Source: a virus
Taxonomy: Duplodnaviria > Heunggongvirae > Uroviricota > Caudoviricetes
Virus record (IMG/VR): IMGVR_UViG_2681813233_000010
Reading direction: 5' to 3' (one strand)
Length of the DNA stretch: 25,181 nucleotides
How positions within the stretch are numbered: the first letter of the stretch is position 1; each line of letters opens with the position of its first letter. Made by a program: the position numbers and the translations under genes. Positions 4,523-20,539 of the stretch are shown here, piece after piece. Below the pieces are notes generated by a model, which did not search any database, had not been told where the DNA came from, and saw only the letters and a program-made list of their open reading frames with translations.

Positions 4523-4793
4523 GATGTTACCGTAGTATGTGAGTATCCATCGAATAGACACCAAGCAAAAAAGCTCCCGAAGGAGCCTTCATTTTCACTT
4601 TTTCAAATCCAACGACAGACGGCTGGCATTTAAGTATTGTGAAATATTATCAAATGTAATCATCATTGATTTACAAAAGATACATTTTGCCCCGAAAGGA
4701 TTCATGTCAGAAACATCAAAAGATGATGTTCTATACTGGGAACCATGACAACACGGGCATCTAAAGTGAATATGGTTTGTAATATTGTCTACC

Positions 4794-5006
4794 TCAAAGC
4801 GCCACTACATGAACAGCGGCAGGACCTTTAGGTCCGTTCTCAATACCAAATTCAACTTCCTGATTCTCAGTTAATGTTTTGAAATCGTTGCTCTGAATTG
4901 CTGAGAAATGGACAAACACATCTTTGCTGCCATCTTTCGGCGTGATGAAACCAAAACCTTTTTCAGGGTTAAACCATTTCACTAAACCAGTCATTTTGTT
5001 AGACAT
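4794..5006 (-). CDS. cspI: Cold shock protein CspA-family paralogue, 70 aa
   Basis: [38 protein letters not shown]... carries the cold-shock RNP motifs; position next to the lysis genes matches Qin cspI. Confidence 0.85.
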
Positions 5007-5367
5007 AATTATTACCTTTTGAAGAAATTAGCCCTTGGGCAGAATGGTCCGAAAAAAATATCAGAGAGAAAAACCAACAAGGAAATCTCAAGAGGTACAA
5101 ATAATAAAATTATAACAATGACTGCTTCAGATAAATTTGTAACAAACCAGAACACCATTAACGCATGATTAACCACCCATAGCAAGGATTACTTTTGTAA
5201 AGAAAAACACAGCAATGAAAGAATAGCTTTATTTATTAATAAAACGTGTCATTCTGATTAAGACCTTTTATCTTACCCTTAAGATTTCAGGAATTTTGGC
5301 TCATGGAAGAGTCCTTTTTATTTAAATTTTACATTCCGCGATGTAAATGTTCCGATTTAATATTACC

Positions 5368-7474: not shown

Positions 7475-7616
7475 ATTTTGCCAAATATGCTAGCCATTGT
7501 TTCATGTATTGGACCTCCTTACTTTTTATTAAAGAGATCCAATATTCACTACTCTGTCCGTATCTCTACTCAGGCATCAGCCTTCTTCGTTATCGTATAC
7601 AGACGAGCGATGAATT

Positions 7617-7832
7617 TTAATCAGTAATGATGACATTTGCTGCTGCAGGACCTTTAGCACCACTCTCTATAGAGAAGGTAACCTTTTGACCTTCAAATAA
7701 GGTTCGATAATTATCATTCTGAATCGCAGAAAAATGCACAAACACATCTTTACTACCATCAACAGGAGAAATAAAGCCGAAACCTTTATCAGCGTTAAAC
7801 CATTTTACTAAACCAGTCATTTTATTTGACAT
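7617..7832 (-). CDS. cspB: Cold shock protein, 71 aa
   Basis: [71 protein letters not shown]; divergent from cspF as in Qin. Confidence 0.85.
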
Positions 7833-8132
7833 TCTACATTCCTTAACTTGAGCCTTTCGGCATAAATGGTTTGCATAACAGAAACGACTTCGTACTTAAT
7901 TGGAGAGACTCAAAGAAGGAATAAGTGAATAACACCTGAAATGAGAACTGCTTTAGTAAACTACTTCGTATATCGTCTGTTCTTCAAACCGACGCAATCA
8001 TTAACGCATAGTTGAACATATGAAGCAATGTTTATTTTAGACATCCAGCCATCTTCAACCCCATCAAAAAACTATAGCTTTCTTCAGGAACGTGTGTATA
8101 GTGCGCCAAGTTATCAGTATTAAGGAATTTTT

Positions 8133-13476: not shown

Positions 13477-14790
13477 TCAATCTTTTTTATCGGGATCAGG
13501 CTTCTTTTTAGGTAACTTCGGGGGCTTAACTTGCTGATGACTTTGCGTTCGGCGCGTAAGCCAGGGATGGTCAGCTTTAGGTTTAACATAGTATTTTGAG
13601 CGTAAATCAATACGGGCATTATCCACTCGTTCATGGACACTCTTTTCATCATCCAGTGGTATAGGCTCCGGGCCATCAACATACTTTTCCCAGCCCAGCG
13701 CTTTCCCGTCATACAGAACGTTAATTTCACCGTCAAAGTTCTCGCATACAGTAACAACCGAATGCCTAAGTCGATATCCCCGGCCCTCACTGCGTACCTG
13801 AAACGCACTGCTTTTGTACTGGAAAGTGAGATTTTTAGACAGAACGCGCTTCGCCTGTAGGCTGAAGATATAACCCAGTTCCTCTTCAGAATGGTGCACA
13901 TCAAGATGAGCATTATCAGTAGTACGAGGCGACGTAGCGAACCGGTTGTTATAGGCTTCAATAAAGGTCGGCAACCATGCATTTGCTGTTTCAATATCAC
14001 TGATATTCTGAAGCCGCATTTCTTTGACCAGCCTGTCCTGTAGTGTCTGATTGGCGCGCTCTACCCGCCCTTTTGCCTGCGGGCTGTTGGCATGGATTGG
14101 CTCGATGCCCAGTGTCTTTATCGCACGAGTGAACTGGGTCAGCTCACCTTCCCGCTCTGGGTTATTTACCCTGAATATACTGTGTCTATCAGAGTAGAGA
14201 GCGAGCGGTACGCCATGATCATTAAGGTAACCCCGGAGGGTTTCCATGTAAGCCCGGGTTGTTTCAGCAGGCACAAAACGCAACGCCATCAACGCACTGG
14301 TGGCATCATCAATGAAAACGATCAGTGTACATCTGGGGCCTCGATTTTCAAACCAGTCATGAGGTGAGCCATCAATCTGGATCAGTTCACCGTAAGATGG
14401 TCGTCGCATGCGGCGTTGATATATACGGGCAATTTTACGACGGCGTTCACGCCATAACCCCTCTTCTATCATCCACTTTCTGAGAGTTTCAACGGATAAA
14501 GATAAACCGTGTATCTCGCGCAATTTTTCGCACGCAAACGTAGGTCCAAAATCAGCGTAACGGCCTTTGAGGAGTGAAATTACTGTTGCTCTGAATTCAG
14601 TAGAAAAGGAATTATTAGGACGCTTTCCACGTCGGTGGGAAACCAGACCAGAAGGCCCTTCATTTCTATACCGTTGCACCAGACGTTTAACCTGCCGAAT
14701 AGAAATGCCAATGCGTGCCGCAGCTTGTTCCTGAATAATCTGAAGTCGGTGGAGTTCCTTATGACTCATCGTAACAGTCTCTTTGATCAT
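13477..14790 (-). CDS. DDE transposase with N-terminal HTH and retroviral-integrase-like (rve) catalytic core, 437 aa; family unassigned (IS481/ISNCY-like)
   Basis: MIKETVTMSHKELHRLQIIQEQAAARIGISIRQVKRLVQRY (HTH) ... LIVFIDDATS ... LALYSDRHSIF ... SPQAKGRVERANQTLQDRL (D, D, E signature region). Confidence 0.85.
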   Translation of the reverse strand: MIKETVTMSHKELHRLQIIQEQAAARIGISIRQVKRLVQRYRNEGPSGLVSHRRGKRPNNSFSTEFRATVISLLKGRYADFGPTFACEKLREIHGLSLSVETLRKWMIEEGLWRERRRKIARIYQRRMRRPSYGELIQIDGSPHDWFENRGPRCTLIVFIDDATSALMALRFVPAETTRAYMETLRGYLNDHGVPLALYSDRHSIFRVNNPEREGELTQFTRAIKTLGIEPIHANSPQAKGRVERANQTLQDRLVKEMRLQNISDIETANAWLPTFIEAYNNRFATSPRTTDNAHLDVHHSEEELGYIFSLQAKRVLSKNLTFQYKSSAFQVRSEGRGYRLRHSVVTVCENFDGEINVLYDGKALGWEKYVDGPEPIPLDDEKSVHERVDNARIDLRSKYYVKPKADHPWLTRRTQSHQQVKPPKLPKKKPDPDKKD

Positions 14791-15124
14791 GAAAAATCCC
14801 CCAGAGAATTGTCTGGGGACATTTTAGAATGGTTCAAAGGGGACATTACAGCTTGGTGTTAACAATAGCCTGCTTCTCCGTGCCTTTCGGCACGTAAGAG
14901 GCTAACCTACATGTGTCTAGCATGAAATTGGCCTCAGATTAATGTTAAGCGTCTTGCAGGACGCGTAATGTTAACTGGGGCTTTTCTCTATCTGCCGTTG
15001 GTGTCCATGCCCGAGGCAGATAGCCTCAAGCACCCGCAGTCATTCTACTTAACTAAGATTTCCCCGCAAACCGTTTTTGTCCAGCACAGTAAATATCCAA
15101 CTAAACCAATGGAGTTCGCTGTAT

Positions 15125-15304: not shown

Positions 15305-15908
15305 TATTCCTCCTACAATCAATGTGCAATTACATTTAAACACACCTCAATTTGGCCGGACATATAAATATCTAAACCAGAAAAAATCACTTACATAGCG
15401 TTACAAACTCTTTAGTCTAAAGGTTCATCGTAAAACATTCCCCATACTTATCAGTCCGTTCCGCGCCAGGTAGCTCATTGCCTTATCTGGCAACCTGTAA
15501 TCAGGTTTCCGCTTTTTCAGTTGGCTGGTCGTTTAACCGACATAGTTAATCCATTAATCTAGTTGCCGGATGTTGGTGGATTTTCGCGTTTTAGTTGTTC
15601 ATAAAAGTGCACAGCTTTAACCAGTTCTTCTGATGTAACTGGGACTGGTGAGGCAGTGAATAAGGCCTGAATTTGATAGTTCGGCCTGTCGTTACAATCC
15701 TCTTTTTTCGGTACATATTTCCAGTCACCAGACCACTACTTCCCCTGAAAGTCCGTAACGCCTTTTTTCACGTAGCGATATCGCCATGCCACTGGTTTTG
15801 CTTGCCCCGCCGTTTCATGCCCTTCCTGATAATTAATCTCGCTCATTCATCGCCCCACTCATCACAATATGCTTCGACCGGAGTTTTTCCCGCTTCATAG
15901 TCATCACG

Positions 15909-16034
15909 CTAGGATTCGACATCAGCAGCACTTCCACCGCGTAACTCACCATAGTCCATTAATAGTTCATCCCGCTCTTCAAAACTGATGTTATATTTAG
16001 CTGAACAAAAATCAGCCACTTTGTTCTTCCTCAT
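15909..16034 (-). CDS. Candidate small ORF, 41 aa
   Basis: Hand translation MRKNKVADFCSAKYNISFEERDELLMDYGELRGGSAADVES; weak RBS; same orientation as neighbours. Confidence 0.2.
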   Translation of the reverse strand: MRKNKVADFCSAKYNISFEERDELLMDYGELRGGSAADVES

Positions 16035-16083
16035 CGTCTTTTATTTCGTGGTATGAGTAATTGCAGTAGTTAAAGAAAATTTC

Positions 16084-16194
16084 TTATGCTCCGTCATGAA
16101 TTTCCTCAGGTGTTGCGTCATCGTCCACTTCGAATACATCCTCAAAATCTCCACCAGCTATTCCCGTTTCAATAATAATTTTGAACTTTCGCAT
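16084..16194 (-). CDS. Candidate small acidic ORF, 36 aa
   Basis: Hand translation MRKFKIIIETGIAGGDFEDVFEVDDDATPEEIHDGA; AGGAGG separated from the ATG by a GC hairpin. Confidence 0.3.
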   Translation of the reverse strand: MRKFKIIIETGIAGGDFEDVFEVDDDATPEEIHDGA

Positions 16195-16456
16195 TTCACT
16201 ACCGCCCTTTCGGGCGGCCTCCTGATGTTCTGAGGGTGCAGAAATCCATCCGGTTAAGGATTAAATTTTATTTACAGAACTGAATTTAATTATTCAGATA
16301 TACGTATCTGTAGCCTTACGAATCTACTCACTGGATGCCTCTTTCATAAAAATAATCCAGTGGGTTTTATCGTTTTTTCCCTGTTCGTTGACAGATAACA
16401 GGTTTTCTGTCTGTCAGTGCCAGAATCTGGCTTACCGGTATTTGCGTTTCATTCCA

Positions 16457-16813
16457 TTAAAAAATCAGAACGCCGTGCGGCCTCAACACCCGAAAGGCTT
16501 CTTTAAATCTCTGTCGCGAATCATCACGCCAGGCATCTTTATTCAGCCGTCCATATTTCTTTCCCATCCAGGCGTTATCACCAACACTCTCAAGATGCGG
16601 AGGGTCTAATACAACCATCGAAAAAGATGCGTCTGCAAATGATAATGCACGAAAATCTGCGATAATGTCAGGGCTGATAATCAAGCGTCTCCCATTGCGT
16701 AATGTGTATCCTTCTTTTCTGATATCGCTGAATATCGCCCGTTCGTCAGACTTATCGAACCAGAACATGCGGCTGCCACAGCACATATCAAGAATGGTTG
16801 CCGGTGCACTCAC
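16457..16813 (-). CDS. SAM-dependent DNA methyltransferase-like protein (motif I-like DMCCGSR, motif IV DPPH), 118 aa; possibly truncated
   Basis: MSAPATILDMCCGSRMFWFDKS...SFSMVVLDPPHLESVGD...VLRPHGVLIF; GTG start overlapping the stop of the upstream ORF (GTGA); too short for a target-recognition domain. Confidence 0.5.
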   Translation of the reverse strand: MSAPATILDMCCGSRMFWFDKSDERAIFSDIRKEGYTLRNGRRLIISPDIIADFRALSFADASFSMVVLDPPHLESVGDNAWMGKKYGRLNKDAWRDDSRQRFKEAFRVLRPHGVLIF

Positions 16814-17232
16814 TGCGCCACGTCCTGAAAATTACCCTGATAGAAAGCCAGTATGCGCTGCATAACTTCGCTCTTCCGGCACTCGCGACAGATTATGTTT
16901 AGGCGACTGTCGTAGCGACGTATTTCTCCGTCAGGTGATGACCAGATAAGGTCCGGATCAACCACAGCAGGTTTCTTCACCTTTGCCCTCGAGAGTTTTT
17001 TGCGGGCGTTTTGCCAGTCCTTACGCGCCTGTTCAGAGGGGAATAACCCGTAGCCGGAGTTGTATACATCGCCACTGGCTACCAGCTCTCTGGCAAGAAC
17101 GCTCATCAGATATCTAGTCGCACCTGTTTTAGCTTCCAGTTGCCGTAACGTCTCACGGCCGCTCTGGCGCACGAGTTCCACCACCTGCCATTTAATTTTT
17201 TCCCGCTCTTCTTGTGTAAAAACTTTTGCCAC
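16810..17232 (-). CDS. Hypothetical protein with predicted N-terminal winged-helix/HTH, 140 aa, GTG start
   Basis: MAKVFTQEEREKIKWQVVELVRQSGRETLRQLEAKTGATRYLMSVLARELVASGDV...; AAGGGGGA Shine-Dalgarno before GTG 17232; translationally coupled to the downstream MTase-like ORF. Confidence 0.5.
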   Translation of the reverse strand: MAKVFTQEEREKIKWQVVELVRQSGRETLRQLEAKTGATRYLMSVLARELVASGDVYNSGYGLFPSEQARKDWQNARKKLSRAKVKKPAVVDPDLIWSSPDGEIRRYDSRLNIICRECRKSEVMQRILAFYQGNFQDVAQ

Positions 17233-17272
17233 AAGTCCCCCTTAAAATTACCTCATGACCTGAAATCAACAC

Positions 17273-18238
17273 TTATCCTCTGAAACCAGGCGGAATTTCT
17301 GTATCCGGTTCAGAAATATGATTAACACAACGCTGTACAGGTGAACGTCCCAGGCGGATGACCAGTTCGTCCCATTTTTCGCGGAGCTTTGACGGGCTCA
17401 TGATGTTTTTTACCCAGAATGGATCTCGCTGAACCCGACCAAACATTTCGCAAATTTGTCTGTGGCTTCTGCCATCCAGCATCCGCATTGTGCGCACGTC
17501 ATTGGCCCAGGCAGTCCAGTTAGGCTCTTTTGGTCGCATGATCTCGCCATCATCACTGGCTGCCTGTTCGTAGAGACCCACGATCCGCCCCCAGATCCAC
17601 TGCGCACACGCCAAATCCTCCCTGCTACCCCACTGGCGTTTTTTCGCACTAAACACAACCGCGTCGGAGTTCCGGGTTAAAGAATCCTGTTCAGTCGTCT
17701 GCGGGTCCGGTTGCGAAGCTTCCGGACGAAAAGTGTTTTTATTCTCTGTAGTAATCTCTGTTGTATTCTCTGTAAGATCATCAGGCCATTTTGACCCGAT
17801 GACATTGGGTCGTTTTGAACCAATGGAGCGTTTCATTTTGACCTCTTCCATCGTGTCATTTTGACCTGATGGAGCGGCGCATTTTGAACCGATGGATTCG
17901 CTCAATTTGCCACCATCTAAAAGCTCGCTCCCATAGTTGATCGTGTAGAAATTGGTCATATCGCGCTTTGATTTATTGAGCTTTTCACAACGCAAAAGCC
18001 CCAGCGTTTTCAGACTTGCAAACGCGCGCTTTAACGTTGACTCTGACCAGAATGGGAACTGTTCCAGCCATTGTTCCGTTGTGTTATAAATCCAGCGAAC
18101 ACCATCACATTCCATGCCGGAGTTGGTATCTCTCAACCAGTAGTGCAGTTGTTGCAAAACAATGGCTTCGTTTAAGCCAATTTTCATTGCCAGCTGCGTG
18201 TTTATAACCAGTGGGCGTTCAGCAAAAAGAAGGCTCAT
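17273..18238 (-). CDS. Putative phage replication initiation protein, about 321 aa from ATG 18238
   Basis: Position downstream of the cro-like and cII-position genes; N-terminal winged-helix-like segment (WIYNTTEQWLEQFPFWSESTLKRAFASLKTLGLL); repeated IGSK motifs; track ORF begins at TTG 18292. Confidence 0.5.
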   Translation of the reverse strand: MSLLFAERPLVINTQLAMKIGLNEAIVLQQLHYWLRDTNSGMECDGVRWIYNTTEQWLEQFPFWSESTLKRAFASLKTLGLLRCEKLNKSKRDMTNFYTINYGSELLDGGKLSESIGSKCAAPSGQNDTMEEVKMKRSIGSKRPNVIGSKWPDDLTENTTEITTENKNTFRPEASQPDPQTTEQDSLTRNSDAVVFSAKKRQWGSREDLACAQWIWGRIVGLYEQAASDDGEIMRPKEPNWTAWANDVRTMRMLDGRSHRQICEMFGRVQRDPFWVKNIMSPSKLREKWDELVIRLGRSPVQRCVNHISEPDTEIPPGFRG

Positions 18239-18740
18239 AATTCCATCCAGCTTTTTGTTGGTATTGCTGTCGATACGCAAGCTTGAAAGCAATTGCTTTT
18301 TCTATAAGTTCGTCAGTTTCACGATCCACTACGGCAGGATCAGCAAAAAGCAGTCCGGACTCCACCACATCGCCATATTCTTTGTTTAACCCGGCGATCA
18401 TGCACGTGATGCTTTTTCCGTCAGTAATTTCACGATACAACCTGAAATCACTAATCCGGATAGCCTCCATAATCGCAGGCACTAGCGCCGTGAACTTTTC
18501 ACGCTTATCCCTGGTGTCGATAGCCTTCCAGCGTTCGAATATCTTCACTCGATTAACACCAAGCGCTCGCTGATCAACCGCGCCACCTTCATCTGTGACA
18601 CGCTGAACATCGATGTTCGGGCGCTCTTTCAAAGCCCAGAATGCTTCAGTGATTAATATCGTCGCCTGCTCCTGTGTCATTCCTGGTCGACATATCCAGG
18701 CATCCAGAGCCTCACGAGCCTGTTCAGGAGTGATTTTCAT
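18219..18740 (-). CDS. Hypothetical protein in the cII position (YdaT-like?), 173 aa
   Basis: ORF directly after the cro-like dicC, overlapping its stop by 17 nt; function not recognisable from sequence. Confidence 0.45.
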   Translation of the reverse strand: MKITPEQAREALDAWICRPGMTQEQATILITEAFWALKERPNIDVQRVTDEGGAVDQRALGVNRVKIFERWKAIDTRDKREKFTALVPAIMEAIRISDFRLYREITDGKSITCMIAGLNKEYGDVVESGLLFADPAVVDRETDELIEKAIAFKLAYRQQYQQKAGWNYEPSFC

Positions 18741-18954
18741 TGTTCAACCGCCCCGCCCGCTTCGTCTTACGATATTCATCATAAACTTTGGGATCATACT
18801 GAAGCTCCCCGCCAGATGCCTCCTGTAGACGCATCGCGCGACCTTCAGGAACCAGTATCCCCCAAGCAGCAACACTTGCCAGCCTCACTCCTGCGGCATT
18901 GGCAAGCTTTGTTTTGCTGCCAAAAAAAGTAATTGCGTCAACTTTAAGCATCAA
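18724..18954 (-). CDS. dicC: Cro-like regulator DicC, 75-76 aa
   Basis: MLKVDAITFFGSKTKLANAAGVRLASVAAWGILVPEGRAMRLQEASGGELQYDPKVYDEYRKTKRAGRLNNENHS; divergent from dicA; ATG at 18951, TTG at 18954. Confidence 0.75.
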   Translation of the reverse strand: MMLKVDAITFFGSKTKLANAAGVRLASVAAWGILVPEGRAMRLQEASGGELQYDPKVYDEYRKTKRAGRLNNENHS

Positions 18955-18964
18955 AGCCCCCTCT

Positions 18965-18982
18965 TGTTAGACTTTTCTAACA
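18965..18982. promoter_or_regulatory. Operator palindrome TGTTAGA-CTTT-TCTAACA in the dicC-dicA divergent promoter region
   Basis: Perfect 7-bp inverted repeat with 4-bp spacer between the divergent repressor genes. Confidence 0.6.
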
Positions 18983-19031
18983 TTATTGTGCGCGGGATAC
19001 CTAAGTCAAGAAAAATTAGAATTACCTAACT

Positions 19032-20481: not shown

Positions 20482-20539
20482 TTTCTGGTGACGTTTGGCG
20501 GTATCAGTTTTACTCCGTGACTGCTCTGCCGCCCTTTTT
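20482..20539 (+). ncRNA. dicF: DicF small regulatory RNA (Hfq-dependent sRNA that represses ftsZ) with intrinsic terminator
   Basis: TTTCTGGTGACGTTTGGCGGTATCAGTTTTACTCCGTGACTGCTCTGCCGCCCTTTTT matches the DicF sequence as recalled; GGCGG / CCGCC terminator stem then T-run. Confidence 0.85.

Follow-up and report, generated by a model that had tools for sequence, protein, structure and literature searches.

A Ren-like DUF977 gene followed by a methyltransferase pseudogene at the end of the early-right operon of the Qin prophage

The Ren protein of bacteriophage lambda relieves Rex exclusion. The ren gene lies directly after O and P, overlaps the preceding gene by 4 nt, and encodes a protein of 96 residues (NP_040633.1) that belongs to PHROG 142 (E = 1.6e-41). 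The DUF977 proteins (PF06163) are found in prophages of E. coli and Salmonella (for example WP_001151262.1, 'LygF'), and a winged-helix fold has been assigned to them by profile comparison (PMC2686095). In some prophages the DUF977 gene is directly followed by an intact gene for a small methyltransferase of the PHROG 954 type. A representative of this methyltransferase family is WP_001275735.1, a protein of 157 residues that is a member of PHROG 954, PDLC03288 (MTase_II) and PDLC03730 (oMTase). No paper on the small methyltransferase family and no characterized member were found in a literature search.

In this report, we describe the corresponding gene pair in the window, which is the whole 25,181-nucleotide stretch of DNA that was analyzed. 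A preliminary description of this DNA had recorded a translationally coupled pair of reading frames of 140 and 118 codons. Both frames, their GTG starts, the AAGGGGGA site, the GTGA overlap, the DMCCGSR and DPPH motifs and the C-terminus ...PHGVLIF were found to be present on the minus strand. The 118-aa frame had been proposed to be either a truncated remnant of a phage orphan amino-methyltransferase or the catalytic part of a split enzyme. We conclude, with a probability of about 0.9, that the two frames are consecutive and functionally independent accessory genes at the end of the Qin early-right operon, an intact Ren-like DUF977 gene and a methyltransferase pseudogene. The first gene would encode a winged-helix protein in the position of lambda ren, and the second would be the remains of a gene for a small stand-alone phage class I SAM methyltransferase of about 155-162 residues. 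The latter would have been inactivated in the Qin lineage by a change of AAA to TAA at codon 119, together with a +1 insertion 26 codons further 3', after which substitutions would have accrued at conserved positions. The GTGA overlap would be a generic junction of the early-right operon, with nothing specific to this pair. The coordinates of the features are collected in Table 1.

Table 1. Positions of the features at the end of the early-right operon, numbered from the first nucleotide of the window.
Feature	Position	Strand	Basis or remark
Promoter-like TTGACT-16-AATAAT	19009..18982	-	upstream of dicC; consensus match only
Rightward early-unit genes upstream: dicC (cro-like), YdaT/CII-like gene, O-like replication gene	17273..18954	-	Pfam, PHROG, annotation
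Shine-Dalgarno-like AAGGGGGA	17236..17243	-	3 nt 5' of the DUF977 GTG; read directly from the sequence
DUF977/Ren-like winged-helix gene, intact, 140 aa	16810..17232	-	GTG start at 17232..17230; PF06163, PHROG 142
GTGA overlap (DUF977 stop TGA and methyltransferase start GTG)	16810..16813	-	read directly
118-aa ORF, covering the first 73% of a gene for a class I SAM methyltransferase	16457..16813	-	GTG start; PHROG 954, PADLOC, homologue alignment
Nonsense codon TAA, inactivating	16457..16459	-	AAA (Lys119) in 6/6 intact alleles; DNA alignment column 358
Remainder of the methyltransferase pseudogene (WNETQIPVSQILALTDRKPVI...THWIIFMKE), recognizable past the stop	16324..16456	-	tblastn, translation
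1-base insertion (GGG, GG in intact alleles), frameshift	16379..16381	-	DNA alignment column 436
DUF7167 pseudogene	16015..16194	-	in-alignment stop; tblastn with intact L097 homologue
Pseudogene of a 58-aa gene	15846..16019	-	internal stop; tblastn with intact L097 homologue
Pseudogene of a 171-aa gene	15428..15846	-	internal stop and frameshift; tblastn with intact L097 homologue

Prophage setting and the DUF977 gene

A 1.2-kb stretch around both reading frames was found to be 100% identical in many complete E. coli genomes, which include those of strains W and ATCC 8739, and the window is the Qin (dicA/dicB/relBE) cryptic, defective lambdoid prophage of E. coli. The gene order in the annotation of E. 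coli W is cspB, cspF, ydfT, ydfU, rem, hokD, relBE, ydfV, flxA, ydfW, a partial ISNCY transposase, two pseudogenes, the methyltransferase gene, the DUF977 gene, a replication gene, a YdaT-family gene, dicC, dicA, ydfABC, dicB, ydfD, an exonuclease gene, xis and int. Of the Rfam matches in the window, a DicF sRNA (20483..20534, plus strand) and two cspA-type thermoregulator leaders (4767..5151 and 7601..7993, minus strand), are those expected for Qin. The same decayed region is contained in GenBank PV340562.1 (L105), deposited as 'Escherichia phage PhiR42_1, complete genome' from ECOR13. This record carries the 118-aa methyltransferase fragment, transposase genes, flxA and ydfV, with the DUF977 protein labelled 'LygF', and it looks like a Qin-like cryptic element that is not obviously a viable phage.

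The early unit consists, in order, of dicC, the YdaT/CII-like gene, the O-like replication gene (PHROG 391, E = 6e-91), the DUF977 gene and the methyltransferase gene, and the final two are its last readable genes. A promoter and terminator scan of the window was uninformative overall, with promoter counts that did not rise above the shuffled expectation. The last 20 residues of the O-like protein (QRCVNHISEPDTEIPPGFRG; 17276..17335, minus strand) are 95% identical to the tail of a replication protein of 356 residues from the E. coli locus that represents the commonest context of DUF977 (L097), and the two replication proteins are otherwise unrelated. The same tail weakly matches the C-terminus of the primosomal protein DnaT (NF002770, E = 0.006). 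It may be a host-interaction tail that the two proteins have in common, or it may mark a mosaic joint.

The 140-aa product is the RefSeq protein WP_001151262.1, which is annotated likewise there. It matches the Pfam model for DUF977 with E = 5e-29 and a score of 101.5 bits, against a gathering cutoff of 22.1, and residues 1-136 align to positions 1-134 of the 134 in the profile. The winged helix that had been proposed for it in the preliminary description agrees with the published analysis of DUF977. Homologues in E. coli prophages are 140-141 residues long and very numerous, with hundreds at 90-96% identity, and the gene in the window is therefore intact, an ordinary full-length member of its family. 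The GTG start positions of both reading frames are also used by the homologues that were compared. No specific NCBIfam model was found for either the DUF977 protein or the methyltransferase.

Like lambda Ren, the 140-aa protein is placed in PHROG 142, the 'Ren-like exclusion protein' family (E = 1.6e-47), and its gene holds the position that matches that of ren. Both proteins have a small winged-helix/MarR-like N-terminal part, and they share a C-terminal motif, N(I/L)..(R/K)ECR.S..M.R(I/V)LA.Y, which is 50% identical over 20 residues (E = 2e-6 in a single comparison). The pairwise similarity is confined to these C-terminal 20 residues, however, and lambda Ren is shorter (96 against 140 residues) and falls below the threshold of the PF06163 model, unlike the window protein. 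Because of its membership in PHROG 142 and its position, we call the 140-aa protein Ren-like, by family and by location. The Ren-like role is inferred from these two properties, and relief of Rex exclusion should not be assumed for the DUF977 protein of the window.

The methyltransferase family and the lesions in the window copy

The 118-aa frame belongs to a widespread family of small methyltransferases. It was matched by 1630 database proteins at E <= 1e-5, and the preliminary description had allowed for the absence of any match to a methyltransferase family, which is contradicted by the match to PHROG 954 at E = 6.7e-58. The intact family is large, with 2472 representative clusters (50% identity, E <= 0.001). 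It was found in 254 phage records, whose hosts include Streptococcus, Vibrio, Listeria and Gordonia, and phages of both Gram-positive and Gram-negative bacteria carry it. Its members consist of a core of about 155 residues that runs to the C-terminus of the protein, and the N-terminal extensions, where present, are heterogeneous. No recognition domain was found in the core of the family members, and a Pfam scan of the N-terminal extensions returned no DNA-binding domain. The earlier remark that the 118-aa frame leaves no room for a target-recognition domain is correct, but this is not a special property of the fragment, for the intact database homologues of 157-174 residues (fragments left out) also lack such a domain.

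The fragment carries LDMCCGSR at residues 8-15 and DPPH at residues 70-73, motifs that it has in common with WP_001275735.1. The SAM-binding motif I (LDMCCGS, residues 8-14) and the acidic residue D30 at the end of beta2 are retained in the window copy and are invariant in its homologues, and DPPH, which conforms to the motif IV pattern (D/N/S)PP(Y/F/W/H), is invariant in 75 diverse homologues. The REBASE-derived PADLOC models label the family as MTase_II or orphan methyltransferase, and PHROGs as DNA methyltransferase. The matches to Pfam are borderline and generic for the family (Methyltransf_11/25), and those of the 118-aa frame to the same two models are weak. The curated models for DNA methyltransferases (PF01555, PF02384, PF02086, PF05869 and PF05063) gave no match to the window ORF. 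Among the homologues, PF01555 was matched by one of the 31 aligned proteins with E = 0.027 and by one longer member with E = 0.003, and neither match reached the gathering score. The DPPH motif fits an exocyclic-amino methyltransferase acting on N6 of adenine or N4 of cytosine. The name amino-methyltransferase, which the preliminary description had used, has this motif as its sole basis, and it is not backed by any curated DNA-methyltransferase model of Pfam. DNA is the putative substrate of the intact family, which could also act on a substrate other than DNA.

None of the three family models was matched from end to end by the 118-aa frame. It covers positions 52-165 of 229 in PHROG 954, 3-122 of 169 in PDLC03288 and 5-116 of 153 in PDLC03730, and the corresponding ranges for the closest intact homologue (P0010, 87% identity) are 52-205, 3-163 and 5-152. 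The nearest intact E. coli alleles are 82-87% identical in amino acid sequence over residues 1-118. Homology to the family over the full length of the gene was recovered only when a stop codon and a frameshift were ignored in tblastn searches. In these searches residues 1-147 of P0010 were aligned in one frame from 16813 to 16373, across the stop, and residues 145-162 in another frame from 16380 to 16327. The missing C-terminal 44 codons thus lie directly 3' of the stop codon, in frame for 28 codons and then shifted by a 1-base insertion, and the window translates through the stop as ...GVLIF*WNETQIPVSQILALTDRKPVICQRTGKKR*. Alignment of the DNA with six intact alleles identified exactly two lesions, an A-to-T change that converts AAA to TAA and one inserted G. 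The truncation is therefore a point nonsense mutation and not a deletion. Of the two alternatives, between which the preliminary description could not decide, that of a truncated phage orphan methyltransferase is the right one, and the C-terminal rest of the gene, far from being absent in all frames as the preliminary description had envisaged for a pure pseudogene, is present downstream, across the stop and then in the shifted frame.

The possibility that the stop and the frameshift are sequencing or assembly errors, or that programmed recoding yields a full-length enzyme, was also considered. The frameshift adjoins a homopolymer (GGGAAAAAA), which is a typical site of such errors and also a slippery context. 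The identical sequence is present, however, in hundreds of complete genomes that were sequenced independently, a full-length product would require that each of the two lesions be bypassed, and the additional missense decay described below argues against a maintained product. We consider the probability of either explanation to be virtually nil.

The part of the protein that is cut off is strongly conserved. In the intact homologues ...GVLIF is followed by the highly conserved sequence KWNETQIPVSQILALTD.KP.I.QRTGK.DKTHWIIF.KE, and 17 of the positions missing from the 118-aa frame are invariant among 31 homologues. An AlphaFold2 model of the closest intact homologue, obtained with a diverse alignment of 75 sequences, had a pLDDT of 94.2; a prediction from a shallow alignment (31 sequences, at least 73% identity), with a pLDDT of 52.9, was discarded in favor of it. 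This model places beta5 at residues 110-121, a helix at residues 127-131, beta6 at residues 138-144 and beta7 at residues 150-156. The chain of the 118-aa frame stops after residue 118 and does not complete the seven-stranded sheet (beta1-beta7). A product of 118 residues would have a Rossmann-like sheet without strands beta6 and beta7 and with the end of beta5 cut off. From these losses in the model, and because the missing part is conserved, we infer that such a product would be inactive. Motifs I and IV are untouched in the fragment, and its sequence, taken by itself, would be compatible with the binding of SAM.

When the PDB sequences were searched with the family profiles, the only match was 1VE3, a weak one to a generic methyltransferase. 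The closest solved structures among the structural matches listed are PH0226 of Pyrococcus horikoshii (1VE3) and generic class I methyltransferases, at 13-24% identity. Trm11, TrmN and RsmC are among the top matches, and no solved DNA methyltransferase is present among the 60 matches listed. It is the widespread intact DPPH family of about 155 residues, rather than the copy in the window, that merits experiment.

Gene contexts of DUF977 and the methyltransferase

In the split enzyme that had been suggested for this locus, the 118-aa protein would be the catalytic core and the DUF977 protein the DNA-recognition subunit, with translational coupling providing the stoichiometry. The 4-nt GTGA overlap, the winged-helix fold of DUF977 and the lack of a recognition domain in the methyltransferase family would all suit such an arrangement. 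We compared the contexts of the two genes. With an iterated profile, a few of whose matches may be false (weak matches to DUF1627, for example), a DUF977-like ORF was found within the flank (up to 6 kb) of 34 of the 94 methyltransferase loci and was absent from the flanks of the other 60. Single-sequence tblastn under-counts DUF977 in this comparison and found it at 6 loci. In approximately 10 of the 94 loci the DUF977 gene directly abuts the methyltransferase gene, lying immediately upstream and overlapping it. This frequency speaks for a partnership and is above that of random placement; we attribute the excess to the common location of the two genes in the post-replication accessory region. 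Intact pairs of this kind, arranged as in the window, are found in E. coli 2014C-3599 and at loci L016, L017, L020 and L022, and probably resemble the ancestor of Qin.

The two genes are also found apart. Intact copies of one methyltransferase (P0017) occur in lambdoid and P22-like prophages, where they lie in the PL/ea region with recombination genes on one side and Ead/Ea22 genes on the other, and no DUF977 gene is near them in 8 distinct contexts. In Salmonella the methyltransferase P0059 is encoded two genes after the DUF977 gene. In the opposite direction, DUF977 most often precedes an unrelated ORF of 66 codons. The gene for the commonest DUF977 protein of E. coli (P0276) is followed by this ORF (L097, 2923-3123), and the DNA flanking it in L097 is about 90% identical to the window on both sides (compared with 16327..16813). 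The same 4-nt stop/start overlap is found with the intact methyltransferase alleles and with the 66-aa ORF in the slot. Judged from these alignments, the slot after DUF977 appears to be a swappable cassette at a fixed junction. Since the cassettes are exchanged with the overlap retained, the overlap is a property of the junction and not of the DUF977-methyltransferase pair.

These contexts, with intact methyltransferases encoded without DUF977 and DUF977 encoded ahead of the 66-aa ORF, show that the pairing is not obligatory, and we reject the split enzyme for this reason. Neither consistent co-occurrence nor complementary domains, as would be expected of two subunits, were found. The part that the 118-aa frame lacks is not a recognition domain but the conserved beta6-beta7 portion of the same fold, which is encoded in the same gene behind the stop codon. 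The intact homologues are each the product of a single gene and are 157-162 residues long. Lambda Ren, which is grouped with DUF977, has no methyltransferase partner. We regard a split enzyme with DUF977 as its recognition subunit as extremely unlikely. The stop and the frameshift kill the methyltransferase gene, so that what had been described as a minimal enzyme is an ordinary decaying pseudogene. There is a slight chance that, at the roughly 10% of loci where the genes are coupled, a Ren-like protein targets or regulates a DPPH methyltransferase, and that the 118-aa fragment of Qin is still made and binds SAM or a partner.

Decay of the locus, prevalence and annotation

Apart from the nonsense codon at 119 and the frameshift, the window copy differs from the intact methyltransferases of the PHROG 954 type by six substitutions at near-invariant positions. 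At 60 columns that are conserved in at least 95% of 93 full-length homologues, it departs from the consensus at six (C39R, D40N, P58S, F69L, R76S and G102R), whereas the intact proteins have a mean of 0.94 departures at the same columns. Two of the six, F69L and R76S, adjoin motif IV. The dN/dS values for the window copy against intact alleles were determined to be 0.20-0.29, and those among the intact alleles were mostly 0.05-0.20, so that the rise is only about two-fold; one near-identical intact pair, with only 3 differences, gave 0.55. The 118-aa alleles form a graded series of decay that extends from a nearly intact-like form (P0008) to the form in the window.

The three genes downstream of the methyltransferase gene are pseudogenes as well (Table 1), and in E. 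coli strains W and C11 PGAP flags them likewise. Decay is affecting the distal part of the operon as a block, and it has left dicC, the ydaT-like gene, the O-like gene and the DUF977 gene intact. A partial ISNCY transposase is located after the three pseudogenes, at about 13747..14790. A sok antitoxin RNA match (Rfam, 104 bits; 14864..15035, minus strand) adjoins this transposase remnant, and the annotation of E. coli W has no hok/sok feature at these positions. Since hok follows the 171-aa gene in related prophages, the match may represent a disrupted hok/sok locus.

Of 5426 complete E. coli genomes, 901 contain a homologue of the methyltransferase gene. The homologue is at least 99% identical to the window pseudogene in 382 of these genomes, 95-99% identical in 98 and 80-95% identical in 422, and every member of the last band that was examined is an intact allele in another prophage. 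The truncated allele is carried by about 9% of complete E. coli genomes, a high frequency that is explained by the vertical inheritance of Qin, a cryptic prophage fixed in the chromosome. This prevalence could in principle mean that the 118-aa fragment has been retained under selection as a neo-protein with a function of its own, such as SAM binding or a dominant-negative effect, and the start, the overlap and motifs I and IV have been kept and the frame is annotated as a CDS. The substitutions at six near-invariant positions, two of them beside motif IV, the raised dN/dS, the incomplete beta-sheet and the like decay of the neighboring genes all argue against selection for such a product, and vertical inheritance suffices to explain the prevalence. 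We consider a retained neo-protein highly unlikely and favor the pseudogene.

Both genes have previously been annotated, and the pseudogene state of the second has already been recognized by PGAP in some genomes. From a biological point of view the finding is minor, as it adds one more decaying gene to a well-known cryptic prophage. It has a practical consequence, which is that WP_001310834.1, the RefSeq entry for the 118-aa product, should be left out when methyltransferases are counted for inventories of methylomes or of restriction-modification systems. The treatment of the locus at 16457..16813 in RefSeq is inconsistent. In E. coli W and hundreds of other E. coli genomes WP_001310834.1 is an ordinary CDS named 'class I SAM-dependent methyltransferase', and a copy of 98.8% identity in E. 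coli C11 (L106) is flagged by PGAP as 'SAM-dependent methyltransferase; frameshifted; internal stop'.
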